From the NCBI GenBank assembly GCA_964429815.1, contig CAYSCM010000001.1:256001-320000 (forward strand): a stretch of DNA of 64,000 nucleotides. Reading direction: 5' to 3'. How positions within the stretch are numbered: position 1 is the stretch's first letter; each line of letters opens with the position of its first letter. Position numbers and translations under genes: made by a program. Of this stretch, positions 3,146-63,911 are shown one piece after another. Source of the stretch: an uncultured Candidatus Saccharibacteria bacterium (GTDB taxonomy: Bacteria; Patescibacteriota; Minisyncoccia; Phycocordibacterales; CAYSCM01). Under the pieces are notes generated by a model. The model was not told where the DNA came from and ran no database searches. It saw nothing but the letters and a program-made list of their open reading frames with translations.

Positions 3146-3261
3146 GGTGCCGCTTAGTATAGCATCGGCACAATGATTTTCCGGTGTGTCTACCTTGTGG
3201 CCATGTATCGGCGTGGTTCAATACAGGGAGCACCTCAGTTCTCTACAGAAAGGGCAAGAGC

Positions 3262-4209
3262 ATGAAACGACTCTTCCTCATCGTATTATTCTGCGTTTTC
3301 TCGGTGCCGACGTACGGCCAAGTGCAGCTCCTTCGTTCTGACCCTCATAAAGCGGTATGGGCCACATACGCCTACATTCTTCAGAACTCCCTGCGTCGTA
3401 TCGATGTAGCGACCTGTGGGGAGCCCATCCGACGCGCCATCGGAAAAGTTCTCGCGTCCAAAGATGACCCCTTCACCCTCGTCGAGCAGAACTTTATTTT
3501 GCAGACTCGCGGATGCTTTGATCATTACTCGCAGTTCGTCCTGTTCCGAAGGACTCCCAATCCGCCCCAAGAAAATACCTCCGGAGGAACAACGAAGCTC
3601 GCGTACCGGACGGTCATCGGTGCTCCGCTGACCGAGACGACGCAGTACGTACTTATCGAGCGTTTTGGCTCCATGACAGCGCGCGACTTTGCTCGGGAGC
3701 TGTCTTCCACCAGGGGAATGCGCAACCTCGTCCTTGACCTTCGGGACAATCCGGGCGGAAGCCTCGATGGCGCGCTTAGCATCGCGCACCTCTTTGCGCG
3801 CTCCGAGAAGCTTGTCCTCGCGGAGTACGTATTCAAGAACGGGGACGTCAAGACGCTCGTGACGACCTCCGCGGGAATATTCCGTCACGTTCGCATCATC
3901 ATGCTGGTCAACCGCAATACGGCCTCCGCGGGGGAGGCTCTTGCAGGGGCGATCCGGTGCAGCGCCGGGGATGCCCGCATTCTCGGGGAGAGGACGTACG
4001 GCAAGGGCGTGTTCCAAAACGCCCTCGTTCTCGATGAGGGCATTGGCCTCTATCTCACGGCCGGAGAGTACTTCGTCGCCGGGGACCGTGTTCGCGGCAA
4101 GATCCAGGGCATCGGGCTCCTGCCGGATGTACTTCTCCCGAATACGCGACCGACGGAGGTCGACCGCGATGTCGCTGTGAAAATGGCGCTTACGCTCCTC
4201 GAAAAGTAG
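3262..4209 (+). CDS. S41 family C-terminal processing peptidase with signal peptide
   Basis: MKRLFLIVLFCVFSVPTYG signal; NLVLDLRDNPGGSL and TASAGE S41 motifs; start chosen at signal peptide Met. Confidence 0.75.
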   Translation: MKRLFLIVLFCVFSVPTYGQVQLLRSDPHKAVWATYAYILQNSLRRIDVATCGEPIRRAIGKVLASKDDPFTLVEQNFILQTRGCFDHYSQFVLFRRTPNPPQENTSGGTTKLAYRTVIGAPLTETTQYVLIERFGSMTARDFARELSSTRGMRNLVLDLRDNPGGSLDGALSIAHLFARSEKLVLAEYVFKNGDVKTLVTTSAGIFRHVRIIMLVNRNTASAGEALAGAIRCSAGDARILGERTYGKGVFQNALVLDEGIGLYLTAGEYFVAGDRVRGKIQGIGLLPDVLLPNTRPTEVDRDVAVKMALTLLEK

Positions 4210-33895: not shown

Positions 33896-33916
33896 TTCGG
33901 GGTATACTGCTAGGTC

Positions 33917-38780: not shown

Positions 38781-38812
38781 AAAACCGGCACAAAGCCGGT
38801 TTTTCTTTTGCT
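38781..38812. terminator. terminator after ssrA
   Basis: AAACCGGC-acaaa-GCCGGTTT with flanking A/T runs. Confidence 0.7.
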
Positions 38813-38813
38813 G

Positions 38814-39183
38814 TGGAGATGGGCGGAATCGAACCGCCGTGCAAAATAGGGTAAACGCGTTTCTACACTATCTAGTCTGCTCTCAATTCTCGAAGTTATG
38901 CGTTAAGAGCAAACAAAATCGCATACCTTCCAGTCTCGTAGTTTAGACGCGCTCGTGAGACACCAAATGCGTCGAGTCCGGAAATATTACACCCAAGAGT
39001 GCCTAACAGACTTCAACAAGCTGGATGGGATTAGGCCGTCGCGTAAGCGAAGGAGAAATCCTTTGCCGAAAAATACGGCGAAGTAACTGATTTTGCAGTT
39101 ATTTTTTCAGGATTTTAAGGAAGGTCCTGACTTCCACAGTGCACGTTAGTTTACGGATTATTTTGTCTAGGCCGATCATCCCC
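38814..39183 (-). ncRNA. ssrA: tmRNA (transfer-messenger RNA)
   Basis: 5' GGGGATG / 3' CATCTCC-A acceptor with G3-U70 wobble, T-arm GGCGGTTCGATTCCGCC, internal tag ORF GCA AAG GAT TTC TCC TTC GCT TAC GCG ACG GCC TAA (AKDFSFAYATA*); adjacent smpB. Confidence 0.75.
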
Positions 39184-42732: not shown

Positions 42733-42805
42733 GGGCGTGTAGCTCAACGGTTAGAGCACCAAGCTTATACCTTGGTGGTTCCTGGTTCGAATCCAGGCAC
42801 GCCCA
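42733..42805 (+). tRNA. tRNA-Ile with anticodon TAT (UAU)
   Basis: cloverleaf: acceptor GGGCGTG/CACGCCC, D-arm GCTC..GAGC, anticodon stem CCAAG/CTTGG loop CTTATAC, T-arm CCTGG TTCGAAT CCAGG; no encoded CCA. Confidence 0.8.
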
Positions 42806-44956
42806 CTATTCGAAGTGAAGGTTGGCAGACGCTTCGGCGGCTTTTGTAGCGACGTGTGGGTACTTAGCGAGGGTAGGATCCTCCTCAACAAGCGCCTCGG
42901 CCTCCGTGCGGGCCGCCTCTACCATTTTGAGATTGCTCATCGCTTCCATCGCGATATCCGAGATGCCCCACTGACGCCCTCCGCCGAGCTCGCCCGCACC
43001 ACGCAGCTTGAGATCAAATTCGGCGAGTTCAAAGCCATTTTTTGCTGTTTTGATGGCGCGTAAACGATCCGTGGTCTGCTTTCCCTTAGAATCCGCAAAC
43101 ACGTAGCAATATGCTTGATGTGTGGAGCGAAGCACGCGGCCACGAAGCTGGTGGAGTTGGGCCAGTCCAAAACGTTCCGCCCCCTCGATGACAATTACCG
43201 TCGCATTCGGAACATTCACGCCCACCTCGACAACCGACGTTGCAACCAATATCTGGATTTTATTCGCAGCGAATTGCTCCATAACGGAGTCCTTGTCCGA
43301 CGCACTCATTTTGCTGTGGAGTATGCCAACATCGAATTCCGGAAATACTTCATCAGCGAGGCGTTTCGCCTCTTTTTTCACCGATTTAGCGAGAAGAGCG
43401 AGCTCCTTGGTGGGATCGGGCTCGTCAATGCGCGGGCAAATGACGTAGGCTTGGCGGCCCGCTTTGAGCTCGGAGCGGATTTTTTCGTAGACACTTTCGC
43501 GCTCACTTGGTGCGACGATTTCTGTCACTATCGGCTTGCGTCCCGCGGGCATCTCGTCGAGGAGTGAGAGGTCGAGATCGCCGTAAATGGTAAGGGCAAG
43601 TGTGCGGGGGATGGGGGTCGCCGTCATAGAGAGAAGGTGAGGTGCAATGTCGTCCTTACGTACCAGTTTTTTCCGCTCCCTCGTGCCGAAGCGATGCTGC
43701 TCGTCGATGATGACGTAGGCAAGATTCTTAAATTTAACCGCCTTTTGAATGAGAGCGTGGGTGCCGATGAGGATGGGTATTTCGCCATTAGCGACCCACC
43801 TGAGAAGCTGTGCGCGGGAGATATCCGTAGCACCCTCGCGGTTAACTTTTGAGGGGAACTTTTTACAGCCCGAGCTCGTGAGGAGGCCGATGTTGATGGG
43901 AAGGTGCTTAAATAGCGCTATGAAAGATTCAAAGTGCTGCTTGGCGAGGATTTCGGTCGGTACCATGTAGGCGACCTGAAGATTGCCAAAATTCTGCCCC
44001 GCCGGTCGGGTCATCACGGTGGCGTACGCGGTCGCAGCGGCAACCGCGGTTTTCCCCGACCCCACATCGCCCTCGAGAAGGCGCGACATAGGGTGTCCCG
44101 ATTTCATATCAGACACAATGTTTTCAATAGATTTTTTTTGTGCACCGGTGAGGGGGAAAGAAAAGCGTGACGTAAATTCACTGATGTCGCGCTGCTCGAG
44201 TGCAATTTTGAACGATTGATGGTGTTCGTACTCACGACGCTCCTTAAACTTTCCGACCTGAATAAAAAATACTTCCTCAAAGGCGAAGCGCTTTTTTGCC
44301 GAAATTGAATCCCTAAGCGTTTTTGGGGTGTGGATCCACACCAGAGCGGCGGCTTTGGTGGGGAGGTGGTAGCGCTCGATGATCTCGGCGGGAATTGGGT
44401 CGACGATTTTCTCCAGAATGCCGCTTTTGAGGACACGGTCGATGGCATAGTAGAACCACTTCGAGGTGATGCCTCGGCTCTCGGGGTAGATGGGGTAGAG
44501 GCTCGAGGCGCTCATATCGGAAAACATGGGCCCCGTGCCGGCCTCGTTTATGTGAGCGGCTTCGATTTCGGGATTACCAAAGTACACACCCGATTTTCCC
44601 GAGCCGACTTTGCCGGCAATTTTTACAAAACTCCCGTCGGGATGCATTTTCGCGATGTAGGGCTGGTTGAACCAAATGAGTTTGACCTTGCCGCTCCCGT
44701 CCTCGAGGTAGCCCTCCGCAATGGGGACCTTGGAGCGGAAGGCGCGGCGTGTTTTGGGCCCTTTGAGAACGCCGTAGAGCGTTGCGGCCTCACCCGGGGC
44801 GAGCGTCGCCACCGTCTTCGTCCTCCCTAAATTTTCGTAGCGGGTCGGGTAGTGGGAGAGGAGGTCGTCGATCGTTGCGATGCTGAGTTTCCTGTGGGCC
44901 CGTTTTTGGACTTCTGAAATACGAAAATGTTTCTCGACGGCGTCGGTGAGTTCCAT
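42806..44956 (-). CDS. recG: ATP-dependent DNA helicase RecG
   Basis: wedge domain plus DEQHRFG and helicase motifs. Confidence 0.9.
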   Translation of the reverse strand: MELTDAVEKHFRISEVQKRAHRKLSIATIDDLLSHYPTRYENLGRTKTVATLAPGEAATLYGVLKGPKTRRAFRSKVPIAEGYLEDGSGKVKLIWFNQPYIAKMHPDGSFVKIAGKVGSGKSGVYFGNPEIEAAHINEAGTGPMFSDMSASSLYPIYPESRGITSKWFYYAIDRVLKSGILEKIVDPIPAEIIERYHLPTKAAALVWIHTPKTLRDSISAKKRFAFEEVFFIQVGKFKERREYEHHQSFKIALEQRDISEFTSRFSFPLTGAQKKSIENIVSDMKSGHPMSRLLEGDVGSGKTAVAAATAYATVMTRPAGQNFGNLQVAYMVPTEILAKQHFESFIALFKHLPINIGLLTSSGCKKFPSKVNREGATDISRAQLLRWVANGEIPILIGTHALIQKAVKFKNLAYVIIDEQHRFGTRERKKLVRKDDIAPHLLSMTATPIPRTLALTIYGDLDLSLLDEMPAGRKPIVTEIVAPSERESVYEKIRSELKAGRQAYVICPRIDEPDPTKELALLAKSVKKEAKRLADEVFPEFDVGILHSKMSASDKDSVMEQFAANKIQILVATSVVEVGVNVPNATVIVIEGAERFGLAQLHQLRGRVLRSTHQAYCYVFADSKGKQTTDRLRAIKTAKNGFELAEFDLKLRGAGELGGGRQWGISDIAMEAMSNLKMVEAARTEAEALVEEDPTLAKYPHVATKAAEASANLHFE

Positions 44957-45020
44957 GGGCCCTAGTATACGTTGGATAGGGAGGTTGTGAGAGGAGCGGG
45001 AATGACGCTACGATGGGGTA

Positions 45021-51261: not shown

Positions 51262-51350
51262 GCGGAGAGGGTGGGATTTGAACCCACGGTCCAGTTTCCC
51301 GGACTCCGCATTTCGAGTGCGGTGCCTTCGACCAACTCAGCCACCTCTCC
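51262..51350 (-). tRNA. tRNA-Ser (anticodon CGA)
   Basis: GGAGAGG acceptor, anticodon loop CTCGAAA, long variable arm GTCCGGGAAACTGGACC, T-arm GTGGG TTCAAAT CCCAC; followed by long imperfect hairpin 51205-51260. Confidence 0.85.
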
Positions 51351-51431: not shown

Positions 51432-52061
51432 CTAATGCGCCAGTGCGATGAGGACGACTTCGCGCGCTCCGGGAAGCCGGAGCGCGCGTTTTGCTTCCGA
51501 GAGCGTAGCACCGGTGGTCATGACGTCGTCGACGACGATAAGAAGGCCCTCCGGCAAGGCTCCGGTCAGAGCGAAAGTCCCTTCAACATTCTGAAGCCTC
51601 CCCTGCCGGGAGAGCGAAGTCTGGGGCGCTGTGTCGCGCATCTTTTTTAAAAGTCCCGCGACACGGGCCTCGCCGAGCCTTCGTGCCGCAACGGCGAGAA
51701 CAAGCTCGACCTGGTTAAAACCCCGCGCACGCAGGCGCTCTTGCGAGAGCGGAGAGGGGATGAGAACGAGCGGGCGCTCGAGCACGCCCTCGTCTTCCAC
51801 AAACGACAGCAGGGCCTCGGCGAGTGCGCTTCCGAGAATCTCCGCACTGCGCCTATCCCTTCTGTACTTAAGCTCTCGTATGAGCGCGCAGACAAGGGGA
51901 TCTTTGTAGGAGGAGAGGACATGTATACCGTCGACAACGGTGCCGAAGGAGAATTTCGAAAGCGCTTCTGCGTCGCTTGTCGCGGCGATGAGCGCGGCTT
52001 CTCTGCGTTGCGGCAAGAGGAGGTTGAGAAGTTCCAAAAGCGCACGGCGAACTTTCTCCAT
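51432..52061 (-). CDS. comFC: ComF family phosphoribosyltransferase-domain competence protein
   Basis: C-terminal PRTase motif LIVVDDVMTTGATL. Confidence 0.75.
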   Translation of the reverse strand: MEKVRRALLELLNLLLPQRREAALIAATSDAEALSKFSFGTVVDGIHVLSSYKDPLVCALIRELKYRRDRRSAEILGSALAEALLSFVEDEGVLERPLVLIPSPLSQERLRARGFNQVELVLAVAARRLGEARVAGLLKKMRDTAPQTSLSRQGRLQNVEGTFALTGALPEGLLIVVDDVMTTGATLSEAKRALRLPGAREVVLIALAH

Positions 52062-52115
52062 GACCTTAATCTAGCCACGCTAACGTTGTGGGCGCAACGG
52101 GGTATACTACAAGGA

Positions 52116-53252
52116 ATGGTACGTTTAGGTGCTTCACTTTCTTCGCTTTTTGGCGGTGTGTTTTCGCAAAAACCCGCCGAAAGCGTCGTGGGCGTCGACA
52201 TAGGCTCTTCTTCTATAAAGGTCGTACAGTTGCGGCGTAAGTCCGGCGTTCCCGTCCTTGAGACGTACGGCGAGCTCGCGCTCGGCCCTTACGGCGGAGT
52301 CGAGATCGGTCGCGCCACGAATCTAGGGCCCGACGTCATAGCCAAAGCGCTCAATGATGTTGTGCGCGAGGCCAATGTCACCGCAACCTCCGGCGGCTTC
52401 TCCATCCCCTTCAGCGCCTCACTCATTTCACTCATCGAGCTTCCGCAGGTGCCTCCCGGTCAGCTCGCCCAGATGATCCCGCTCGAGGCGCGCAAGTACA
52501 TCCCCGTCTCAATCGGCGAGGTGACGCTCGACTGGTTCGTCATACCCAAAGAAGAAGCGCGCTACCTGTCCCTTTCGGAAGATAAGGAAAAGGCGCCGGA
52601 AGCGTCCAAAATAAACGTGCTCCTTGTCGCTATCCACAATGACACGCTCAGCAAGTACCGCGACATCATAAAACAGACCAAGCTTACACCAGGATTTTTC
52701 GAGATAGAGATCTTCAGCGCCGCTCGCGCTTCACTCGAGCAAGGCATTGCACCGGTCATGGTCCTCGACCTCGGGGCTGCGACCACGAAGCTCTACATCG
52801 TCGAGTACGGCATCGTGCGTGCCTCCCACAACATCAACCGCGGCGGGCAGGACGTGACGCTCGCACTTTCCCGCACCCTCGGCGTTTCCGTCCAAAAAGC
52901 GGAGGAGATGAAGCGCGAACTCGGGCTCCTGCCGGGGCAAAACGGCACGGGGGTATCGGAGACGGCGCTCCTCTCCCTCGAATACATTTTTTCGGAAGCC
53001 AATCGTGTGCTTCTCTCCTATGAGCGGCGTTTCAATAAAAACGTCAGCAAGGTGGCCCTCGTCGGCGGCGGAGCCATTATGAAGGGACTTCTTGAGGTCT
53101 CGAAAAAACATTTCCAGACGGACGTTGTGCTCGGGAACCCTTTTGCGAAAGTCGAGGCTCCAGCGTTCCTGGAGCATGTTTTGCGACAGGCCGGGCCGGA
53201 ATTTTCCGTCGCGACGGGACTTGCCCTTCGAAAGCTCTCCGAGCAGGGATAA
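52116..53252 (+). CDS. pilM: type IV pilus assembly protein PilM
   Basis: actin-like ATPase fold, VGVDIGSSSIKVVQL; TATACT 7 nt upstream. Confidence 0.8.
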   Translation: MVRLGASLSSLFGGVFSQKPAESVVGVDIGSSSIKVVQLRRKSGVPVLETYGELALGPYGGVEIGRATNLGPDVIAKALNDVVREANVTATSGGFSIPFSASLISLIELPQVPPGQLAQMIPLEARKYIPVSIGEVTLDWFVIPKEEARYLSLSEDKEKAPEASKINVLLVAIHNDTLSKYRDIIKQTKLTPGFFEIEIFSAARASLEQGIAPVMVLDLGAATTKLYIVEYGIVRASHNINRGGQDVTLALSRTLGVSVQKAEEMKRELGLLPGQNGTGVSETALLSLEYIFSEANRVLLSYERRFNKNVSKVALVGGGAIMKGLLEVSKKHFQTDVVLGNPFAKVEAPAFLEHVLRQAGPEFSVATGLALRKLSEQG

Positions 53253-53297
53253 CTTGCTTGGAAGAGAATGTGAGCGTCGCCTATACTATAGAGTGAA

Positions 53298-53945
53298 ATG
53301 GAACCGAAGTTCCGTACATCTTTCATTCCAAAGCAGCCCATCGTGGCCGTCCCGGCGAAATCAACGCGTCGTGGCGGCGGGCTTCTCTTTCTCGTCGCGC
53401 TCATAATTTTTCTTGCTGCAGTCACCCTCGCCGGCGCGGTATTTCTCTACCAGCAGTACCTCAAGCAGGCGATAAGCTCCAATAAAGCTTCCCTTGAACG
53501 CGCACGGGCCGCGTTCGAGCCGGCGCTCATCCAGGAACTTGAGCGGCTCGACAGCCGCATAACGGTCGCCGGGCAGCTTCTCGGGAAACATACCGCTCCG
53601 GCAGAGCTTCTCACCTTCCTCGCCGACAACACGCTCCAGGACGTGCGCTTTACCGACTTCAATTACACCGCATCTGCGGACAAGATATCGCTCACCATGA
53701 AAGGGGAAGCCAAAAGTTTCGCCGCGGTCGTCCTACAATCGGATGCATTCGCTAAAACCCACGATCTCCACGAGCCTATTTTCTCCAATCTCAATCTCGA
53801 CGATAGGGGGAATGTCCAGTTCGACTTCGCCGCGTACGTAGAACCCGGCCTCGTTTCCTACGCCGCGTCTCTCGATCGAGGGCTCGGCGCAGCCGGTACG
53901 CAGCAGGGGACGAATGGTTCACAGCACGCCACCTCAACACCATGA
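53298..53945 (+). CDS. pilN: PilN-like pilus assembly protein
   Basis: N-terminal TM then coiled coil, position after pilM. Confidence 0.5.
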   Translation: MEPKFRTSFIPKQPIVAVPAKSTRRGGGLLFLVALIIFLAAVTLAGAVFLYQQYLKQAISSNKASLERARAAFEPALIQELERLDSRITVAGQLLGKHTAPAELLTFLADNTLQDVRFTDFNYTASADKISLTMKGEAKSFAAVVLQSDAFAKTHDLHEPIFSNLNLDDRGNVQFDFAAYVEPGLVSYAASLDRGLGAAGTQQGTNGSQHATSTP

Positions 53946-54484
53946 TAAAGTTCCTTATTCCCATCATCTTCGTTGGCACCGCAGCCGGGCTCTTCTTCGG
54001 CTACATCGACCCCACATACTCGAGCGTGAAAGGGCTTAAGGGGGAGAACCAGCAGTACTCCGATGCGCTCGATAAGGCCAAAGAGCTCCAGGCAGTGCGC
54101 GATCGCCTCCTCTCCAAGTACAACACCTTCCAGGGCTCCGACCTCGACCGTCTCCAGAAGCTCCTGCCGGATGCCATCGACAACGTGCGTCTCATCCTCG
54201 ACCTCGATAACATGGCAAGCCGCTACGCAATGCGCACTCGCAACGTCACCGTAAGTAACGAAAGCGCTCCCGCGCAAGGAACCGTTGGGCCGGACGTAAA
54301 CCGTTTCGGCACGGCGACCATCACCTTCTCGGTCATCGGCTCTTATGAAAATTTCCTTGCTTACTTGCGTGACCTTGAGACAAGCCTGCGACTCGTCGAT
54401 ATCACGACTGTTGTCTTTCAGGTCAACCAGGGAAGCGACCTCAACACCTACACCATTACCGTGAAGACCTATTGGCTCAAGTAA
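53942..54484 (+). CDS. pilO: PilO-like pilus assembly protein
   Basis: N-terminal TM, coiled coil, operon position. Confidence 0.5.
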   Translation: MIKFLIPIIFVGTAAGLFFGYIDPTYSSVKGLKGENQQYSDALDKAKELQAVRDRLLSKYNTFQGSDLDRLQKLLPDAIDNVRLILDLDNMASRYAMRTRNVTVSNESAPAQGTVGPDVNRFGTATITFSVIGSYENFLAYLRDLETSLRLVDITTVVFQVNQGSDLNTYTITVKTYWLK

Positions 54485-54867: not shown

Positions 54868-56643
54868 ATGGAAAAACTACTTGAACTTTTAGTCGACAAG
54901 GGAGTTCTCAGCGCTTCCGATGCCGCTGCAATAAGCTCGCAAGCCACCGCCGAAGAGGGGGCCGAAGAGCAGCTTCAAAAGCGCGGCGTGAGCGCCGAAG
55001 ACATCCTTACCACAAAGAGCGATTACTACAAAGTTCCCTGGAAGACACTTGGCGACGAGACGGTCGCCATCGAGACCCTGCGCTATATTCCCGAAGAGTC
55101 GGCGGCGCACTACCGCTTCGTGCCGCTCGCACAGCGCGACGGGGTCCTTGAGGTTGGTATCCTCGACCCGGACAATATCGAAGCGCTCGATGCCCTTAAT
55201 TTCATAAGTTCGAAAATGGGTGTGCCCTACAAGGTGTTCCTCATCACCGAAGAGGATTTCAAAAAAGTCATTGGCATGTACAAGGGCCTCTCCTCCGAAG
55301 TGGGGAAGGCGCTATCCGAGCTCGGCGGGGAGCTTGGAGAGGCTGACGACCTTGAGACTCAGCTCTCGGAGGTGAAGGGGAAACTCAAAGAGGACGAAGA
55401 GCACATCAAGGAAGATGCCCCGGTCACGAAGATGGTCGCCACCATCATCCGCTATGCGGTCGAAGGGCGTGCTTCGGACATACACATCGAACCCACCGCC
55501 ACGAATGTGCGCGTGCGTTTCCGCGTCGACGGCGATCTCTACACGTCGCTCACTCTTCCCGCTGCCGTACAGAAAGCCATCGTCGCGCGCATCAAAATAC
55601 TCTCCCTCATCAAGCTCGATGAGAAGCGGAAGCCGCAGGACGGTCGTTTTTCGGCCATGGTCGACAACCGGCGCATCGATTTCCGCGTTTCGACTTTTCC
55701 CACCTCCTACGGTGAAAAGGTCGTGATGCGCATCCTTGACCGCGACAAGGGAGCCATCAAGCTCACCGACCTCGGGATGGAAGAGGAGCAGCTTGCGGCG
55801 GTCCGCGACATGATAAAGCACCCCTACGGCATCATTCTTCTCTCGGGCCCGACCGGCTCCGGTAAGTCGACAAGCCTCTACGCGATGCTCAACGAGATGG
55901 ACCGCGAAAAGAAAAACGTCGTCTCGCTCGAGGACCCGGTCGAGTATGACATCCAGGGCGTCGCGCAGTCTCAGGTCCGCCCGGAGATAGGCTATACGTT
56001 CGCTTCGGGGCTCCGTTCTATACTGCGCCAAGACCCGAACGTCATCATGGTCGGCGAGATCCGTGACAAGGAAACGGCCCAGCTTGCGGTGCAAGCGGCC
56101 CTCACCGGACACCTCGTCCTCTCGACCATCCACACCAACACGGCTGTCGGCGCAATACCGCGCCTCATCGATCTTGGCGTCGATCCGTTTCTCATCGCGC
56201 CGACCTTGATCGGCGTCATCGCCCAACGTCTCGTCCGTGTGCTCTGTAAGGGAAGCGGCAAGAAAATGCCGGTCGAAGGGAGCATCAAAATAATGCTCGA
56301 GAAACAGTTCGCTGATCTACCCGCCAAGTACCGCAGCCAGATCCCAACCGGAAAGTCCGTCTACGGTCTCGATCCGACGCCAGAGTGCCCCTCGGGGACC
56401 CGCGGGCGCACGGGGGTGTTCGAATTCCTCACCATGGATGCGGCGATCGAATCGATCATCCTCAAGCATCCGGTCGAGGAGGAGATCTGGACCATTGCGC
56501 GCGGTCGAGGCATGTTCACCATGAAGGAAGACGCGATCAAGAAAGCGATGAAAGGAGAGATACCGTTCGAGGAAATAAATACCCTCGGCGGGGCGCTCCT
56601 CACCGACGAAGAAGCGCCGCAAGGGGAAGAGGCGAAGTCATAG
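54868..56643 (+). CDS. pilB: type IV pilus assembly ATPase PilB (GspE family)
   Basis: N-terminal GSPII_E_N domain, Walker A GPTGSGKST, Asp/His boxes. Confidence 0.9.
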   Translation: MEKLLELLVDKGVLSASDAAAISSQATAEEGAEEQLQKRGVSAEDILTTKSDYYKVPWKTLGDETVAIETLRYIPEESAAHYRFVPLAQRDGVLEVGILDPDNIEALDALNFISSKMGVPYKVFLITEEDFKKVIGMYKGLSSEVGKALSELGGELGEADDLETQLSEVKGKLKEDEEHIKEDAPVTKMVATIIRYAVEGRASDIHIEPTATNVRVRFRVDGDLYTSLTLPAAVQKAIVARIKILSLIKLDEKRKPQDGRFSAMVDNRRIDFRVSTFPTSYGEKVVMRILDRDKGAIKLTDLGMEEEQLAAVRDMIKHPYGIILLSGPTGSGKSTSLYAMLNEMDREKKNVVSLEDPVEYDIQGVAQSQVRPEIGYTFASGLRSILRQDPNVIMVGEIRDKETAQLAVQAALTGHLVLSTIHTNTAVGAIPRLIDLGVDPFLIAPTLIGVIAQRLVRVLCKGSGKKMPVEGSIKIMLEKQFADLPAKYRSQIPTGKSVYGLDPTPECPSGTRGRTGVFEFLTMDAAIESIILKHPVEEEIWTIARGRGMFTMKEDAIKKAMKGEIPFEEINTLGGALLTDEEAPQGEEAKS

Positions 56644-56694
56644 TCTGTTGAAAAGCGGCGCGGATAGGCTCATGAGGGCGGTATACTGAGGGGC

Positions 56695-57081
56695 ATGGCA
56701 CTCCAGAGCAAATCGATCCTCATCGTCGACGATGACCGGTTTCTCATCGATATGTACTCGCTGAAGTTCAAAGAAGAAGGGTTCACGGTCTCCTCGGCGC
56801 AGGGCGGGGAAGAAGCCATCAGCAAGCTCTCGACTGAAGCTCCGGACGTCGTACTCCTCGATCTCATCATGCCGGGCGTCGACGGCCTCGAAGTGTTGCG
56901 GACCGTTCGGGAAAAGAATCTTGCGAAAGACACCACGTTCATCGTGCTTAGCAACCAAAGCCAAACCGACGACATAGCGCGCGCCAAGGAGCTCGGCGCC
57001 AATCACTACATCGTCAAGGCGAGCGCCGTACCCTCCGAAGTGGTCGCTGAGGTGCGCAAAAAATTAGCACAAACGTCATAA
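56695..57081 (+). CDS. single-domain response regulator (CheY-like receiver)
   Basis: ILIVDDD...D(57)-equivalent LLDLIMPGVDG, K box. Confidence 0.8.
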   Translation: MALQSKSILIVDDDRFLIDMYSLKFKEEGFTVSSAQGGEEAISKLSTEAPDVVLLDLIMPGVDGLEVLRTVREKNLAKDTTFIVLSNQSQTDDIARAKELGANHYIVKASAVPSEVVAEVRKKLAQTS

Positions 57082-57085
57082 TCGT

Positions 57086-58147
57086 ATGGACTATAAAAAA
57101 GAGCTCGTCGAACTTATCGAGACCGTCATAGCGGAGGGCGCTTCCGACCTCCACTTCACCGCCGGTCGACAGCCGACCATCCGCGTTTCCGGCTCGCTTC
57201 TTCCCCTTATCAAAAAACAGACGCTAACACCCGCCGATACCCTCGGCTTCCTCACCGAGCTCTTGCGGCCGGAGAAGAAAAAAGAATTCCTCGACACCCA
57301 GGAGATCGACTTCTCCTACGCCTTTAAGGACAAAGGACGTTTCCGCGGCAACGCTTTTTTCCAGCAGGGCACCATCGCGGTAGCGCTGCGCCTCATTCCT
57401 CGTGACATCCGGCCTCTCTCCGAGCTCAACTTGCCGCCCATTCTCGGAGAATTTACCAAGCGCGAACAAGGTTTCTTCCTGCTCGTGGGTCCCGTCGGGC
57501 AGGGAAAGTCGACCACCCTTGCGGCGCTCCTTGAGATGATCAACCAGGAGCGCTCTGAGCATATCGTGACCATCGAGGACCCGATCGAGTACCTTTTTCA
57601 GCCGAAAAAATCCCTCGTCGAGCAGCGCGAGGTGCGCATCGACACCAAGGATTTCCACATCGCGCTTAGGCAGGTATTCCGTCAGGACGTCGACGTCATT
57701 ATGATCGGCGAGATGCGATCGCCGGAGACCATATCGACCGCGGTCACCGCCGCGGAGACTGGCCACCTCGTCTTCTCGACGCTCCACACCAACAACGCCG
57801 CCCAGACCATCGACCGCATTATCGACTCGTTCCCCTCCGGACAGCAGGAGCAGATCCGCATCCAGCTTGCCGGCTCGCTTGCGGGTATTTTCTCGCAGCG
57901 CCTCATCCCGCGCATCTCCGGGGGGCTTGTGCCGGCCTATGAGCTTCTCATCAATAACGCTGCAGTCGCCAACCTCATCCGTGAAAAGCGCTCCCACGAG
58001 ATAAACACCGTCATCGAAACGGGCGCCGACCAAGGCATGATCGACATGAATCGCTCCCTTGCGGAGCTGGTCCGGCGGGGCGAAATTACGGTGGAAAACG
58101 CCTTCATGCGCTCCCTTAATCCCAAGGTTCTGGAGCGCCTCGTCTAG
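57086..58147 (+). CDS. pilT: twitching motility ATPase PilT
   Basis: GPVGQGKSTT Walker A, PilT family length and motifs. Confidence 0.9.
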   Translation: MDYKKELVELIETVIAEGASDLHFTAGRQPTIRVSGSLLPLIKKQTLTPADTLGFLTELLRPEKKKEFLDTQEIDFSYAFKDKGRFRGNAFFQQGTIAVALRLIPRDIRPLSELNLPPILGEFTKREQGFFLLVGPVGQGKSTTLAALLEMINQERSEHIVTIEDPIEYLFQPKKSLVEQREVRIDTKDFHIALRQVFRQDVDVIMIGEMRSPETISTAVTAAETGHLVFSTLHTNNAAQTIDRIIDSFPSGQQEQIRIQLAGSLAGIFSQRLIPRISGGLVPAYELLINNAAVANLIREKRSHEINTVIETGADQGMIDMNRSLAELVRRGEITVENAFMRSLNPKVLERLV

Positions 58148-58149
58148 CC

Positions 58150-59358
58150 ATGCTTTTCTCCTATAAAGCCATCGACGAAACAGGTGCCGCACGTGAGGGT
58201 ACCATCGATGCGGTCTCGCAGGACGCCGCGATAGCGGCCTTGCAGCGGCGAAATCTGGTCTTGACCTCCATTGGTGAAGCCGGAAAAGGCGGCGGACTCT
58301 CGCTCAATCTCGCTATTTTTGAGAGGGTTAAGTCGAAGGATATTGTCTTTCTCTCGCGCCAGATCTCGACCCTCTTCGAGGCTCAGGTCTCAGCGCTTCG
58401 TGTCTTCCGCCTCCTTGCCGCGGAATCGCCAAGCCCGGTGCTCGGTAAAAAATTGGCCGACGTCTCCGACGAGCTCCAGGGGGGAAGTTCCATCAGCAAG
58501 GCTTTGAGCAAGCACCCCGAGGTCTTTTCCGATTTTTACGTCAACATGGTGCGTGCGGGGGAAGAGTCGGGAAAACTCGACGAGATTTTCCGTTACCTTG
58601 CCGACTACCTCGACCGCTCCTACGAGGTGACCTCGAAGGTGCGCAATGCCCTTATCTATCCGGCGTTCGTCATCGTAACCTTCGTCGTCGTCATGATACT
58701 CATGCTCACCCTCGTCATCCCGAAGCTCTCCGTCATTCTCCTCGAGGCGGGGCAAAAAGTCCCCATCTATACGCGCATCATAATCGGGCTTTCGCAATTT
58801 TTCGTGAACTACGGCGTCTTTCTTTTCATCCTCGCCGGCATCGGCGGCGTCTTCGCCTGGCGCTTCGCGCGCACGAACAACGGGAGCTACTATTTCGATT
58901 CCCTTAAAATAAACATCCCCTACGTCGGAGACCTCTATCGCAAGCTCTACCTCTCTCGCGTGGCGGACAATCTATCCACCATGCTCCAGAGCGGCATCCC
59001 CATGGTGCGCGCTGTCGAGATATCTGCCTCCGTAGTCGGCAATTCTGTCTACCAGAAGGTGCTCCTCGAGACGCTCGAGAGCATCAAGGGCGGTATCTCG
59101 CTCTCCGATACCCTGGCGCGCTACCCTGCGGAGATCCCGGGCATTCTCGTCCAGATGACGCGGGTAGGCGAGGAGTCCGGCGAGCTCGGCTCTATCCTCA
59201 AGACCCTGGCCAAGTTCTACCAACGCGAGGTAAGCAATGCCGTCGACACCTTGGTGGGGCTTATCGAACCGGTCATGATAGTGGCGCTCGGCCTTGGCGT
59301 CGGCATCCTTCTCGCGGCAGTACTCCTACCCATCTACAACATCGCAAGCGCGGTGTAG
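58150..59358 (+). CDS. pilC: type IV pilus platform protein PilC (GspF family)
   Basis: two GspF repeats, 3 TM. Confidence 0.9.
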   Translation: MLFSYKAIDETGAAREGTIDAVSQDAAIAALQRRNLVLTSIGEAGKGGGLSLNLAIFERVKSKDIVFLSRQISTLFEAQVSALRVFRLLAAESPSPVLGKKLADVSDELQGGSSISKALSKHPEVFSDFYVNMVRAGEESGKLDEIFRYLADYLDRSYEVTSKVRNALIYPAFVIVTFVVVMILMLTLVIPKLSVILLEAGQKVPIYTRIIIGLSQFFVNYGVFLFILAGIGGVFAWRFARTNNGSYYFDSLKINIPYVGDLYRKLYLSRVADNLSTMLQSGIPMVRAVEISASVVGNSVYQKVLLETLESIKGGISLSDTLARYPAEIPGILVQMTRVGEESGELGSILKTLAKFYQREVSNAVDTLVGLIEPVMIVALGLGVGILLAAVLLPIYNIASAV

Positions 59359-59482
59359 AGCCCTGCTACGGCCGTCTCGTTATCCACACGCGCCTGCGTG
59401 GGGCATGGGGTAGCGACGTATACTTATGGCGTACGCTTTAGCATAAAAAGCGGTCGAAATTTAACGGTATTAATCAGTAACC

Positions 59483-59977
59483 ATGTTTACAAGAACTACT
59501 ACATCCAAAGGCTTCACCCTCATCGAGCTCCTCGTGGTCATCGCCATCATCGGCATACTCTCCTCGGTCGTCCTTGCTTCGCTTTCGACCGCTCGTGCCA
59601 AGAGCCGTGATGCAGCACGTGTCGCATCGCTCAAGGAAATGGCGAAATCCATTGCGCTTGCGGACGCAGACCCCGCTCCTGCACTTACGACCTGCACGGC
59701 AGCCGGCGCCAAGGCGAACACCTGCAATGGTCCCTCACCGGTCAACTTCGCAAGCTACTGCGACCCAACAGCCGGTTGTGGCGGCACAGCGTGTACGACG
59801 ACCAATGGCTCGGCTTGTCAGTATGCGATAGGCAAGGCAACCCTCGCAACGGCCAACCCAACCACCCAAAGTTGGGAGATCTGTATCTTCCTCGAAACCG
59901 GCGCAGGTTCGCTGAGTTCGGGTATGGTCCATTCCGGCTCCGATACCGGCGGCGGCGTCGTAGCGACCTGCAACTAG
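59483..59977 (+). CDS. type IV pilin (copy 1)
   Basis: KGFTLIELLVVIAIIGIL prepilin N-terminal methylation motif; Cys-rich C-terminal region. Confidence 0.85.
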   Translation: MFTRTTTSKGFTLIELLVVIAIIGILSSVVLASLSTARAKSRDAARVASLKEMAKSIALADADPAPALTTCTAAGAKANTCNGPSPVNFASYCDPTAGCGGTACTTTNGSACQYAIGKATLATANPTTQSWEICIFLETGAGSLSSGMVHSGSDTGGGVVATCN

Positions 59978-60051
59978 CCTCTATTTCTCACGAAATATCG
60001 AAATCCCCAGCGGTCGCTGGGGATTTCGCTTTATAGCGCTATACTTTTCCT

Positions 60052-60543
60052 ATGAGAAAACCCTATCGCCGCGGCTTCACCCTCATCGAGCTCCTCGTGG
60101 TCATCGCCATCATCGGCATACTCTCCTCGGTCGTCCTTGCTTCGCTTTCGACCGCTCGTGCCAAGAGCCGTGATGCAGCACGTGTCGCATCGCTCAAGGA
60201 AATGGCGAAATCCATTGCGCTTGCGGACGCAGACCCCGCTCCTGCACTTACGACCTGCACGGCAGCCGGCGCCAAGGCGAACACCTGCAATGGTCCCTCA
60301 CCGGTCAACTTCGCAAGCTACTGCGACCCAACAGCCGGTTGTGGCGGCACAGCGTGTACGACGACCAATGGCTCGGCTTGTCAGTATGCGATAGGACTCT
60401 CCTCGGCAATTGGGACCGGTGGCGCGACCACGCAGAATTACCAAATATGTACGTGGCTTGAGACCGGGGCCGGCTCACTTACACAGGGTCCGGTGAGCGT
60501 GCGAAGCGACACAGGAGGTGGCGTCGTGCAAAATTGCATCTAA
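60052..60543 (+). CDS. type IV pilin (copy 2); 5' ~350 nt identical to copy 1, divergent 3' end
   Basis: first ~118 aa identical to copy 1; ORF track shows identical antisense ORFs 59574..59831 and 60137..60394. Confidence 0.85.
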   Translation: MRKPYRRGFTLIELLVVIAIIGILSSVVLASLSTARAKSRDAARVASLKEMAKSIALADADPAPALTTCTAAGAKANTCNGPSPVNFASYCDPTAGCGGTACTTTNGSACQYAIGLSSAIGTGGATTQNYQICTWLETGAGSLTQGPVSVRSDTGGGVVQNCI

Positions 60544-60593
60544 ATCCCCAAGTTCTTGGAATTTGTTGTCGGGAGTGGATATATACTTAGTGT

Positions 60594-61103
60594 ATGAAAG
60601 AGTGCATGAAAGAGAAGCGCGGCTTCACCCTCATCGAGCTCCTCGTGGTCATCGCCATCATCGGCATACTCTCCTCGGTCGTCCTTGCTTCGCTCCAAAC
60701 TGCGCGCGCCAAGAGCCGTGACGCTAAGCGCATATCCGACCTGCGCCAGGTACAACTTGCGCTCGAGCTCTACTATGACGTCAATCGGGCATATCCATCG
60801 GCCATCACGACGGCGACCCTCGTGACCCCCGGCTACATCCCTTCGATACCCACGGACCCGACGACAGGCGTTTCGTATAAGTATTCGGTGCGCAATGCCA
60901 CCTGCACCAGCTATCACCTCGGCGCGGACCTCGAACAGACGAGCAATATCGCGCTCAACAACGACTCCGACGCAACGGCCGTCGCCGCAACGAGCGCCAC
61001 GTGCCCCGACGCATCCGTGACGACGAGCGACTTCAGTGGTGGATTCCCGACATGCTCTGCGACCTCGGGTACTCCTGACGGTTGTTATGATCTAACGCCG
61101 TAG
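60594..61103 (+). CDS. type IV pilin (copy 3); shares only the prepilin N-terminus with copies 1/2
   Basis: RGFTLIELLVVIAIIGILSSVVLASL then divergent. Confidence 0.85.
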   Translation: MKECMKEKRGFTLIELLVVIAIIGILSSVVLASLQTARAKSRDAKRISDLRQVQLALELYYDVNRAYPSAITTATLVTPGYIPSIPTDPTTGVSYKYSVRNATCTSYHLGADLEQTSNIALNNDSDATAVAATSATCPDASVTTSDFSGGFPTCSATSGTPDGCYDLTP

Positions 61104-61169
61104 CGTGCAAGGGAAAACCCGCGCCCGCTCTCAGCGGGGCCCGGTTTCTTTCGCGTTATACTAAGATGA

Positions 61170-61946
61170 ATGGCTCTTATCGGTATTGGCGCGTTCATGC
61201 TCGGAACCATCATCGGCAGTTTCCTTAACGTCGTCGTCCTCCGGCTTGGCTCGGGGCGCTCCGTGACGGGGCGCAGCGCCTGCCTTTCCTGTGGGACGAC
61301 GCTTGAAGCCGTCGATCTCGTTCCTATCCTCTCCTATCTTTTTCTTCGCGGCCGGTGCCGTCGCTGCGGGAGTCGCATGTCAGCCCAGTACCCGCTCGTC
61401 GAGCTTGCGACCGGCATATTGTTTCTCCTCGTCGCACTCCTCCCTTTTTCGCCCTATGAGATGATCTATCTTGCTATCCTCGTGTCCCTTCTTGTCGCCA
61501 TTGCCGCCTATGACATCAGGCACAAAATAGTACCCGATGTGCTCGTCTATCCGTTTATCGCACTTGCCCTCCTCCATGCCGCATTCGCCGCGTTCATCTT
61601 CATTCCCGCCACACCCTTTGCTCTCTATGTAGTCTCCGGATTTTCCTTCGCGCTACCCCTTGTCCTTATCTGGTATCTTTCTCATGGCCGCGCGATGGGG
61701 CTAGGTGACGGGAAGCTCGCGCTCGGACTGGGCTTCATGCTCGGTCCCATCGGGACCATCTCGGCATTCGTCTTTTCATTTTGGAGCGGCGCGCTTGTTG
61801 GGGTTGCGCTCATCGCTATTCAGCGCGTTGCTTTGCGGGCGAGGGGCAAGGCTCTTACAATGAAAAGCGAGATTCCCTTCGCCCCCTTCCTCATCTTCGG
61901 GGCGATGCTCGTAAAGCTCCTGGGAGTCGAGCTGCCGCTTTTTTAA
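61170..61946 (+). CDS. pilD: prepilin peptidase (A24 family)
   Basis: N-terminal CxxC..CxxC zinc motif and DUF/peptidase A24 TM core. Confidence 0.85.
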   Translation: MALIGIGAFMLGTIIGSFLNVVVLRLGSGRSVTGRSACLSCGTTLEAVDLVPILSYLFLRGRCRRCGSRMSAQYPLVELATGILFLLVALLPFSPYEMIYLAILVSLLVAIAAYDIRHKIVPDVLVYPFIALALLHAAFAAFIFIPATPFALYVVSGFSFALPLVLIWYLSHGRAMGLGDGKLALGLGFMLGPIGTISAFVFSFWSGALVGVALIAIQRVALRARGKALTMKSEIPFAPFLIFGAMLVKLLGVELPLF

Positions 61947-61956
61947 TCCCTACTCC

Positions 61957-62697
61957 ATGCACCCTAGAGACGACCACGCTCGATACCCTAAGGGCTTTAC
62001 GCTCGTGGAACTTCTCGTTACGGTCTCTATTCTCGTCGTCATCACTGCTATCATACTCGTGAGCCAAAACCGCTTTGGCGGTCAAATAACTCTCACGAAC
62101 CTTGCATACTCCCTGGCACTTTCCATTCGGCAAGCTCAAACGTACGGACTCGCTGTACGTGAGGTGAACTCCGGAAGCGGAAACTTCTCCGCTGCGTTCG
62201 GCGTCCACTTCGACCCCGCGACGCCGTCCCAGTACATCATCTTCGCGGATCTCGACGGCAACGGTCGCTACACAGACTCAAGCGAGAACTATTCGTTCAT
62301 CAGGATAACGAGCGGCGGCAAGATATCTTCCGTGTGCGGCGTGCTCGCCAATGCCACCAACAAGTGCAACCCCGACATTTCAACCCTCGATATCGTCTTC
62401 AAGCGCCCCAATCCCGACGCGCTCATCAAGAGTAATGTCCTCACCGACACCTATGGCGGCGCCAAAATAGTCCTCACCTCGCCGCAAGGGGATACCCGCT
62501 ACGTCTATGTTGCCGCGACCGGTCAGATCTCGGTCCAGCAGGCCGCCACGACGCTCTATACGCAGGCCTCCTACTATGCGCAGGGGTACTACCAGTCCTC
62601 CTACTACAGCCAGAGCTACTACCAGAGCACTTACTACAGCCAGGGCTACTACCAGAGTTACTACGAGAGTTCCTATCAACCCGGTTATGCATTCTAA
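61957..62697 (+). CDS. pseudopilin/minor pilin with C-terminal Tyr/Ser/Gln-rich repeat ending GYAF
   Basis: KGFTLVELLV prepilin motif; C-terminus ASYYAQGYYQSSYYSQSYYQSTYYSQGYYQSYYESSYQPGYAF. Confidence 0.75.
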   Translation: MHPRDDHARYPKGFTLVELLVTVSILVVITAIILVSQNRFGGQITLTNLAYSLALSIRQAQTYGLAVREVNSGSGNFSAAFGVHFDPATPSQYIIFADLDGNGRYTDSSENYSFIRITSGGKISSVCGVLANATNKCNPDISTLDIVFKRPNPDALIKSNVLTDTYGGAKIVLTSPQGDTRYVYVAATGQISVQQAATTLYTQASYYAQGYYQSSYYSQSYYQSTYYSQGYYQSYYESSYQPGYAF

Positions 62698-62710: not shown

Positions 62711-63292
62711 ATGAAGAGGGACGAAAAGCTTCGCGACGGCGGCTTCACGCTCATCGAGATCCTTGTCGCCATCACCATTTTTGCAATCGTCATGATGATC
62801 GCGGTCGCAGCACTTCTTGCTCTCGTCGACGGCTCTCGAAAAGCGCAAGCGCTCGAGTCGGTCATGAACAACCTCAACTTTGCGCTCGAGAACATGACGC
62901 GCTCCATCCGCGTTGGGACGCTCTATCACTGTCAGACGACGAACACCCCCTCATCAAACCTTCAGACCCCTCAAGACTGCACGACCGGTGGCGTACTCCT
63001 CGCGTTCGAAGGGGCAACGGGGGATACAACCACGAACAGCGACCAGATCATTTACCGCCTTAATGGGGCTCAGCTTGAGCGCAGTACCGATGGCGGTGGC
63101 ACCTTCATTGCCATTACGGCTCCTGAAGTCAATATCCAAAGTTTTGCATTTTACGTGAGCGGCACCACACGGGGGGACGGACAGCAGCCCAGAGTCCTCA
63201 TGACCATACGCGGCATTGCCGGCGTCTCCCCGAAGGTACAAACTCCTTTCTATCTGGAGTCCATGGCTTCCCAGCGCCTTCTCGACCTTTAA
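62711..63292 (+). CDS. pseudopilin (GspH/FimT-like)
   Basis: GGFTLIEILVAITIFAIVMM prepilin motif. Confidence 0.7.
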   Translation: MKRDEKLRDGGFTLIEILVAITIFAIVMMIAVAALLALVDGSRKAQALESVMNNLNFALENMTRSIRVGTLYHCQTTNTPSSNLQTPQDCTTGGVLLAFEGATGDTTTNSDQIIYRLNGAQLERSTDGGGTFIAITAPEVNIQSFAFYVSGTTRGDGQQPRVLMTIRGIAGVSPKVQTPFYLESMASQRLLDL

Positions 63293-63293
63293 T

Positions 63294-63911
63294 ATGGCCT
63301 CTTTCCAGAGAAAAACCGGATTTACCCTCATTGAGACGCTTGTCGCCATCTCAGTCCTTCTCGTGTCGATCGCGGGACCGCTCACCATCGCTTCTAAGAG
63401 CCTCACCTCCGCCCTTTTCGCCCGCGATCAGGTAACCTCTTTCTACCTCGCGCAAGAGGGCATCGAATTCGTCCGTAATTGGCGCGACAACAATGCGCTC
63501 GCGAGTGCGGCTTGGCTCACGGGGCTTAGCAACTGCATCTCACCGAATGTCTGTTCGGTCGATCCGAAAAATAACCTCATCGTTGCCTGCGCCGGAGGTG
63601 TGTGTCCCGCGCTCAAGTACGACAGTGCTTCCGGTTTTTACAACACTCAAACTGGTGCCAACTCTATATTTACCCGCACTATTAAGTTAACCCAGATAAC
63701 CGCCGATGAGTACGCGATTTCATCAAAAATTTCGTGGACCTCGGGGCTTTTTCCCAAGACCTTTCAGGTACGCGATAACATTTACAATTGGGCGGGCACC
63801 GCCGTCTACGCGCAAGGAGCCTACTACAGCCAAGGCACCTACTATAGCCAGGGCACTTACTACAGCCAGGGCTACTACCAGAGTACCTATCAGTCAGGGT
63901 ACGCGTTCTAA
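63294..63911 (+). CDS. pseudopilin with C-terminal YYSQG repeats ending GYAF
   Basis: TGFTLIETLVAISVLLV prepilin motif; C-terminus AQGAYYSQGTYYSQGTYYSQGYYQSTYQSGYAF. Confidence 0.75.
   Translation: MASFQRKTGFTLIETLVAISVLLVSIAGPLTIASKSLTSALFARDQVTSFYLAQEGIEFVRNWRDNNALASAAWLTGLSNCISPNVCSVDPKNNLIVACAGGVCPALKYDSASGFYNTQTGANSIFTRTIKLTQITADEYAISSKISWTSGLFPKTFQVRDNIYNWAGTAVYAQGAYYSQGTYYSQGTYYSQGYYQSTYQSGYAF

Follow-up and report, generated by a model that had tools for sequence, protein, structure and literature searches.

Tandem type IV pilin genes with an identical core and diverged ends in an uncultured bacterium: a probable case of gene conversion between old paralogs

Introduction

In Moraxella bovis and Moraxella lacunata the Q/I pilin switch is a Piv-mediated inversion, the pilin genes lying in inverted orientation with a site-specific invertase beside them. 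In Neisseria gonorrhoeae and Neisseria meningitidis the pilS copies, of which there are up to 19 in six loci, are silent, possessing neither a promoter nor a ribosome-binding site, and pilin switching depends upon an upstream G-quadruplex (G4) element (PMC4534519). Legionella pneumophila carries pilA1 and pilA2 at one locus, an arrangement seen genus-wide, and of the two products PilA2 alone can be detected in assembled form under standard conditions (PMC13170364). Thermus thermophilus likewise has several major pilins in a single bacterium, its PilA4 and PilA5 forming filaments with different properties (PMC7203116). For a tandem paralog cluster of Staphylococcus aureus, Tsuru and Kobayashi (2008) reported units of exchange or conservation that do not match the boundaries of the open reading frames (ORFs) (PMC2568036). 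Lastly, the Saccharibacteria member TM7x needs type IV pili for host binding and motility (PMC11623550). Here we describe an array of three type IV pilin genes in 64,000 nucleotides (nt) of DNA from an uncultured bacterium (assembly GCA_964429815.1, contig CAYSCM010000001.1, positions 256,001 to 320,000 of the forward strand), the whole of which is called the window.

The candidate-phyla-radiation bacteria have few conserved surface machines, and type IV pili are one of them. Judging by its pilin homologs, the host of the array is an Adlerbacteria-like member of this radiation: full-length homologs of the first pilin, at 50-71% identity, belong to uncultured Patescibacteria, and several of these organisms bear the name Candidatus Adlerbacteria. 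The first two genes of the array form a mosaic, in which a core identical to the last nucleotide is flanked by anciently diverged ends; the third is an ortholog of a different, conserved pilin, and related arrays carry their identical tracts at other positions. We think it likely that a recent gene conversion overwrote the core of two old type-A paralogs, with no fresh duplication and no dedicated switch. This is an ordinary process in a little-studied lineage, and no new mechanism is proposed.

Results and Discussion

Mosaic structure of copies 1 and 2

A preliminary description of the window, made from the sequence alone, had recognized three tandem pilin genes, and this was confirmed: three prepilin genes on the + strand stand next to one another in a complete type IV pilus operon, with pilC before them and pilD after (Table 1). 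We refer to copies 1 and 2 as A1 and A2 (type A) and to copy 3 as pilin B (type B). All three possess the prepilin N-methylation motif, with matches above cutoff to both PF07963 (E 3e-8 to 4e-10) and TIGR02532, and all three begin with the short basic leader of a type IV pilin (class III signal peptide), which ends in [KR]G and is followed by FTLIELLVVIAIIGIL; they thus show the features of such pilins, with F or M at +1, Glu at +5 and a hydrophobic helix at the N-terminus. The leader reads MFTRTTTSKG ahead of FTLIE in A1, and MRKPYRRG in A2. The three proteins are singletons in protein clustering, and one assembly contains them, on a contig of 501,704 bp.

A1 and A2 are exactly identical over 323 nt (59510-59832 = 60073-60395, offset 563), a tract which starts at the codon of the prepilin cleavage site, codes for G(-1) and mature residues 1-107, and stops just past the CQYAIG block, the Cys and Tyr of which are invariant or nearly so in the family. 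The exact identity had been noted in the preliminary description, which gave it a length of about 350 nt and took the ORFs at 59574..59831 and 60137..60394 to be antisense; these are indeed identical (85 amino acids [aa]), but they lie on the + strand in another frame. Over codons 10-117 the two genes show no nonsynonymous difference and a single synonymous one, in the boundary codon, over approximately 87 synonymous sites. The last 47 codons (tails at 59833..59974 in A1 and 60396..60540 in A2) are 54% identical at the nucleotide level, with a proportion of synonymous differences (pS) of 0.835, which is saturated, and a proportion of nonsynonymous differences (pN) of 0.33. While the tails do diverge as first described, divergence is not confined to the last 45 or so codons: the seven to nine leader codons differ as well (43% nt identity and pS 0.59 over the seven that can be aligned), as does the sequence upstream of them.

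The identity between copies 1 and 2 far exceeds what chance or constraint on the protein would give. Since synonymous divergence is close to zero in the core and saturated at the ends, one divergence time cannot explain both. Ectopic gene conversion leaves just such a tract, with sharp bounds, almost no synonymous divergence inside it and saturated flanks. Of the earlier proposal of recent duplication with gene conversion, the conversion is retained, in keeping with the abrupt tract boundaries and the saturation outside them; the recent date of the duplication is not, the leaders and tails having diverged anciently.

It is extremely improbable that a single type-A gene was recently duplicated in tandem and that its tail and leader then diverged rapidly under positive selection. 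The 323 identical nucleotides could be the remnant of a young duplicate, and tandem type-A expansion is known in the clade, but selection on the protein cannot produce such a tail pS beside one change in the synonymous sites of the core, each tail is nearer to the tails of other organisms than to that of its neighbour, and the upstream regions have nothing beyond an 8-mer in common. A diversity-generating retroelement was rejected on the mismatch spectrum, a reverse transcriptase not having been searched for window-wide: the differences between the tails, at 65 of 141 positions, involve all base pairs, are not adenine-specific and are accompanied by a 3-nt indel.

Copy 3 and the two pilin types

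A shorter exact tract, 74 nt in length, is present in all three genes (59510-59583 = 60073-60146 = 60621-60694), where shuffled sequences lead one to expect none. Copies 2 and 3 have 77 nt exactly in common, and patchy similarity of copy 3 to A1 and A2 runs on to about 107 nt. Copy 3 uses the same codon as copies 1 and 2 at 24 of the 25 positions from codon 10 to codon 34, against 4 of the next 11 codons conserved in the protein. In five relatives the equivalent segment of the A and B genes shows 65-80% identity and no exact run longer than 18 nt. What is seen in the window is therefore lineage-specific homogenisation and not a constraint on the nucleotide sequence.

The similarity at the 5' end of copy 3 had been seen in the preliminary description, which considered the gene to be otherwise unrelated to its neighbours; the remainder in fact belongs to a conserved and distinct pilin subfamily. 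Copies 1 and 2 carry the type-A motifs (VASL.EMAK, CQY.I, TTQ..[EQ]IC and a C-terminal GC), and copy 3 those of type B (RI[SA]D[LI], DPTTG, YHLGA and CYD[LV]T). It aligns with the second pilin of the relatives (L084_5589, L088_7424 and others), and the B class occurs in most of the related loci. On motifs and alignment copy 3 is, then, to be classed as the ortholog of this conserved second pilin and not as a third variant. The sequence said to be shared upstream of copies 1 and 3 amounts to the 8-mer TATACTTA; the score of their local alignment was reached by 40 of 200 shuffles.

Age of the tails

The tail of A1 (KATLATANPTTQSWEIC...) is 77% identical to that of P0005, from another organism, and 50% identical to that of A2, which ranks 24th of 119. 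The tail of A2 (SSAIGTGGATTQNYQIC...NCI) is 67% identical to that of P0008. Column bootstraps for the two groupings are 100% and 96%. The phylogenetic signals are therefore discordant, the cores being identical within the genome and each tail lying nearer to the tails of other organisms, and by these groupings the A1 and A2 tails are assigned to different, older classes. Third-position identity of the tails to their nearest counterparts is approximately 0.40, the same as for the cores; hence this test for lateral import of the tails gave no sign of a recent event.

A related possibility, namely a duplication after which the tail (and leader) of one copy was replaced by DNA from another strain or species, strikes us as quite improbable. 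The two tail classes, TLATA..TTQSWEIC (P0005, P0003) and AIGTGGATTQNYQIC..NCI (P0008, P0009, P0010), are scattered among organisms with a single type-A gene, and DNA uptake is a common associate of type IV pili, both of which would favour import. Such a history, however, needs two replacements, one on the leader side and one on the tail side, where one internal conversion suffices; the nearest tails are saturated at third positions, no recent donor having been sampled; and in two of the relatives, L088 and L110, one can see directly that resident copies have converted one another.

Related arrays

The comparison set consisted of 44 related loci, obtained by a metagenome scan and contig look-ups. 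A separate scan of genome contigs with copy 1 matched mostly through the universal N-terminal motif SKGFTLIE, and recovered distant, uninformative pilins. The canonical order in the relatives is pilB-pilT-pilC-A-B-pilD-minor pilins-ligA, and arrays with several type-A genes occur in L088, L104, L110, L113, L115 and L116. In L088 the type-A copies are identical over exactly 86 nt from the cleavage codon and 22 nt upstream of it, the remainder being about 60% identical. Its sister L110, on a 168-kb contig, presents the mirror image of the window: the exact tract of 314 nt (3142-3455 = 3743-4056) lies at the 3' end, where it takes in the last 258 nt of the gene and reaches 56 nt beyond the stop codon, and the 5' part is about 75-80% identical. 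Conversion in L110 has thus wiped out the diversity of the tails. The exact tract is 56 nt long in L113, and no exact tract of more than 14 nt was found in L104, L115 or L116.

Tracts that differ in extent and position across related arrays are characteristic of concerted evolution. With a 5' tract in L088, a 3' tract in L110 and none in L104, L115 and L116, there is no fixed design of a constant 5' and a variable 3' part. In a further locus, L098, the order is B then A and an unusual IIGLLSTIVV variant is present in both pilin types, which hints at concerted evolution there too.

The preliminary description had also put forward cassette-like recombination, by which the exposed C-terminal region would be varied. 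Programmed variation of this kind, with the identical 5' segment anchoring swaps of C-terminal cassettes into an expressed major pilin gene, would alter the pilus surface as pilE/pilS recombination does in Neisseria or Q/I switching in Moraxella; it is in our judgement improbable. The exact direct repeats of 323 and 74 nt do provide ample homology for RecA-type exchange, the tract ends coincide with the conserved blocks GFTLIE and CQYAIG, and the tails code for most of the beta-sheet and the C-terminus in a confident pilin model. The recurrence of 5' exact tracts in L088 is a further point in its favour, and host binding by the pili of cultivated episymbionts makes a selective reason plausible (PMC11623550). 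Against this, all three genes are complete with a start codon and leader, none is truncated at the 5' end, and TATACT boxes precede copies 2 and 3. The repertoire is minimal, with two tails only; the L110 tract erases tail diversity; and L104, L115 and L116 have no tract at all. Nor is the tail more variable in the family than residues 60-117.

Searches for the machinery of a switch agree with this. No G4 motif, defined as (G3+N1-7)x3 G3+, occurs on either strand of 59001-61300, which counts against cassette variation, and no inverted repeats occur in 59300-61300, which counts against both cassettes and an invertible switch. The array is bordered by pilC and pilD, and the scan of the flanking genes brought up no recombinase gene. 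Silent donor cassettes of the Neisseria type were rejected, all copies being complete ORFs with an ATG and a leader peptide, and so was an invertible switch of the Moraxella Piv type, there being neither inverted repeats nor a recombinase domain in the flanking ORFs scanned. The notion that the tail is the hypervariable region of the family was not borne out either, its entropy being 1.62 bits against 1.54 bits for residues 60-117 (64 family members). With full-length genes and tracts whose position varies among the relatives, the cassette proposal is set aside, and the results accord with sporadic ectopic conversion among tandem paralogs; nothing that we found specifically supports a recombination-based pilus variation system.

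Reliability of the assembly

Contigs that stop within, or just past, the N-terminal segment of a pilin gene are L097 (end 5732), L098 (which starts inside a type-B pilin), L103 and L113. These ends are consistent with assembly breaks at an intragenomic pilin repeat.

It is very improbable that the array is itself an artefact, whether a false tandem put together from two alleles or strains of one gene or an artificially identical consensus into which two slightly different copies were collapsed. The 323-nt repeat is longer than short-read k-mer sizes, the contig ends just listed fall in or just past pilin 5' segments, and the proteins occur in one assembly only, all of which would favour an artefact. 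On the other hand, the junction that runs from the A1 tail through the terminator to the distinct leader of A2 is unique and must be present in some genome, and a tandem path alone would use all of the segments, so that a false tandem is unlikely. The independent assemblies of L088 and L110 also contain arrays of several type-A genes with similar tracts, and the layout of terminator, TATACT and ATG at the A1/A2 junction matches that of relatives. Collapse or bubble-popping could mask a few single-nucleotide polymorphisms within the 323 nt, but could not make the mosaic.

Proposed history of the array

In the history we favour, the array would be the major-pilin segment of the pilus operon, made up of two anciently diverged type-A paralogs, A1 and A2, together with the conserved type-B pilin. 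Ectopic, non-reciprocal gene conversion, by homologous recombination between the tandem copies, would recently have replaced the internal 323-nt segment in one of the type-A genes by that of the other, and the segment of 74-77 nt coding for the N-terminal helix would have been homogenised in all three. Both tracts start inside the strongly conserved block coding for GFTLIE. The leaders, the upstream regions and the last 47 codons would have been left unconverted and have kept their old divergence. A1 and A2 filaments would be expected to differ in the beta-sheet and the C-terminal surface; as the two proteins are alike except in the last 47 mature residues, the same machinery could presumably assemble both. 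The 323-bp direct repeat should also leave the array prone to deletion or expansion through unequal crossing-over.

Several considerations tell against this account. The exact identity and, in principle, the tandem itself rest on one assembly of one genome. The tails are short (47-48 aa), which limits their power for lineage assignment. The same mosaic would result if a tandem duplication had been followed by the arrival of a tail and leader from a strain that has not been sampled. Expression, the promoter role of TATACT and the status of major pilin are predictions.

A more far-reaching interpretation, which we regard as unlikely, is that full-length, individually transcribed pilin arrays serve as a recombination-driven variation system in Adlerbacteria-like ultrasmall bacteria. 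If this were true, frequent segmental conversion and unequal crossing-over between tandem type-A pilins, with the invariant N-terminal block as anchor, would shuffle or remove surface segments, and host attachment specificity or phage susceptibility would change within populations. Such a system would be distinct from the silent cassettes of Neisseria.

Expression signals

A strong terminator-like hairpin follows A1 (Table 1), and its homolog, GAAATCCCC...GGGGATTTC with a run of T, comes after the type-A genes of L088, L095, L099, L110, L113 and L116. Copy 2 is followed by a degenerate hairpin (z 0.04), so that read-through into copy 3 and pilD is likely. The TATACT box was spotted by eye and its enrichment tested afterwards: it occurs 19 times in the window against 6.85 expected, and is found 6-7 nt ahead of the ATG in copy 2, copy 3, pilD and the receiver gene. 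Sites besides those of Table 1 lie at 56682-56687, 53282-53287, 33903-33908, 44964-44969 (-) and 3156-3161 (-), and the box is situated 6-10 nt before many starts. The succession of type-A stop, hairpin with T run, TATACT, a gap of about 6-8 nt and ATG recurs in L088, L089, L095, L097, L101, L103, L110 and L113. A sigma-70 consensus scan of 59300-61250 returned no promoter.

These data suggest that TATACT may function as a conserved -10 box and that leaderless or very-short-leader mRNAs may be widespread in the clade. From the layout of TATACT boxes and terminator each pilin gene looks independently transcribed, probably as an mRNA of this kind. A1 is predicted to be the strongly expressed, terminated major pilin gene, and the most expressed of the three.

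Predicted structure

The AlphaFold2 model of copy 1, built from a 66-sequence alignment, has a predicted local distance difference test (pLDDT) score of 94 and a predicted template modelling (pTM) score of 0.82. It consists of an alpha-1 helix (residues 13-59), a Cys-rich irregular region (60-114) and beta strands at 115-117, 132-141, 144-152 and 159-161, which together make up the lollipop fold of the pilins. Using Foldseek, the best fold match in the PDB was PAK pilin 1oqw (probability 0.87, template modelling score 0.48-0.53, with a weak E of 0.08). Sequence searches of the PDB gave matches to the N-terminal helix only or, for Thermus PilA, to residues 11-95, over which the type-A family profile matches the PilA of 6xxd with an E of 1.4e-10. 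Of the four beta strands, three belong to the 47-residue tail, which also supplies the loop at 118-131 and the C-terminus.

Within the family C163 is invariant and C134 nearly so, and the two probably pair as a disulfide. Copies 1 and 2 possess two extra cysteines, C93 and C99, in the sequence YCDPTAGCG (59760-59780 and 60323-60343), at positions that the family does not conserve (entropy of 2.7 and 2.5 bits). A second disulfide, specific to this genome, might be formed by them.

The pilus operon

The window contains type IVa machinery in cis, with PilB, PilT, PilC, PilD, PilM/N/O and minor pilins (Table 1), and the order pilM, pilN-position ORF, pilO is the same in relatives. Secretins are usually absent in monoderm-like candidate-phyla-radiation bacteria. 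A stand-alone receiver gene splits pilB from pilT; pilT directly follows pilB in L084, L088, L089, L091, L094 and L095. The starts of the minor-pilin genes were reset to the ATG closest to the GFTLIE motif. The first and third of these genes code for Tyr/Ser/Gln-rich C-terminal repeats, (YYSQG)n ... GYAF, at 62556-62675 and 63812-63889, respectively, and have 42 nt at 93% identity in common. The repeats might represent adhesive or low-complexity C-terminal extensions; a crude scan of the minor pilins of the relatives found no tails of the (YYSQG)n type. Upstream of the operon lie a transfer-messenger RNA (tmRNA) gene, two transfer RNA (tRNA) genes and a recG helicase gene.

Table 1. Coordinates of the pilin array, the surrounding pilus operon and other features of the window
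Feature	Coordinates	Strand	Evidence or remarks
tmRNA gene	38811-39183	-	
tRNA gene	42733-42805	+	
recG helicase gene	42806..44956	-	
tRNA gene	51263-51350	-	
pilM	51741..53252	+	PF11104 PilM_2, E 1.6e-32
pilN-position ORF	53298..53945	+	position; without Pfam match
pilO	53942..54484	+	PF04350 PilO, E 1.9e-5
pilB assembly ATPase	54868..56643	+	T2SSE and MshEN domains
CheY-like receiver	56695..57081	+	Response_reg
pilT retraction ATPase	57086..58147	+	TIGR01420 pilT_fam, 425.7 bits, above cutoff
pilC platform protein	58150..59358	+	T2SSF
Pilin A1 (copy 1), type-A PilA-like prepilin, 164 aa	59483..59977	+	PF07963, TIGR02532
GC-rich terminator-like hairpin after A1, 13 bp	59999..60028	+ (scan gave palindrome on -)	-29.9 kcal/mol, z -6.35
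TATACT -10-like box, 6 nt before A2 start	60040..60045	+	
Pilin A2 (copy 2), type-A prepilin, 163 aa	60052..60543	+	PF07963, TIGR02532
TATACT -10-like box, 6 nt before pilin B start	60582..60587	+	
Pilin B (copy 3), GspG-like type-B prepilin, 169 aa	60594..61103	+	TIGR01710, E 4.5e-13, below cutoff
TATACT box before pilD	61157..61162	+	
pilD prepilin peptidase	61170..61946	+	PF06750, E 5e-30; PF01478, E 3e-12
Minor-pilin gene, first	61957..62697	+	PF07963
Minor-pilin gene, second	62711..63292	+	PF07963
Minor-pilin gene, third	63294..63911	+	PF07963

Implications

The picture of the Adlerbacteria-like operon that emerges is one of a conserved A and B pair, repeated expansion of type A and exchange of segments by gene conversion, the last of which illustrates how pilus surfaces could diversify, or become homogenised again, in these organisms. 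Tandem pilin repeats would account for the assembly breaks at pilin genes. For annotation purposes copy 3 should be entered as a separate orthologous pilin, and not as a variant of copies 1 and 2.

Comparison with known systems

As in Moraxella, alternative C-terminal coding segments accompany one constant N-terminal segment; unlike the situation there, the copies in the window are all direct repeats, with no inverted repeats in 59300-61300 and no recombinase in the flanking genes scanned. The Thermus pilins are not known to be tandem mosaics or products of conversion. The pilE-pilS system of Neisseria resembles the array in homologous, non-reciprocal recombination between pilin copies, in crossovers located in short conserved blocks and in a constant N-terminal region (PMC4534519). 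It differs in that the window has two type-A copies, both complete, and no G4, and in that the converted segment is the core and not the variable part. TM7x also belongs to the candidate phyla radiation, but its pilins are distributed over four separate loci and two distinct pilus systems, and neither tandem arrays nor duplication or recombination are mentioned in the study (PMC11623550).

With the S. aureus cluster (PMC2568036) the similarity lies in L110, where the tract begins in the 3' half of the gene and extends into the spacer that follows; the protein family and the organism are different, and the tract of the window lies inside the ORF, starting from the signal-peptide cleavage codon. 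Legionella, like the window, has paired, related paralogs of the major-pilin type at one locus, but PilA1 and PilA2 are about 72% identical with differences along their whole length, lacking an identical core between saturated ends (PMC13170364). The closest parallels to the array are thus the concerted evolution of tandem paralogs, and paired pilin paralogs such as those of Legionella.

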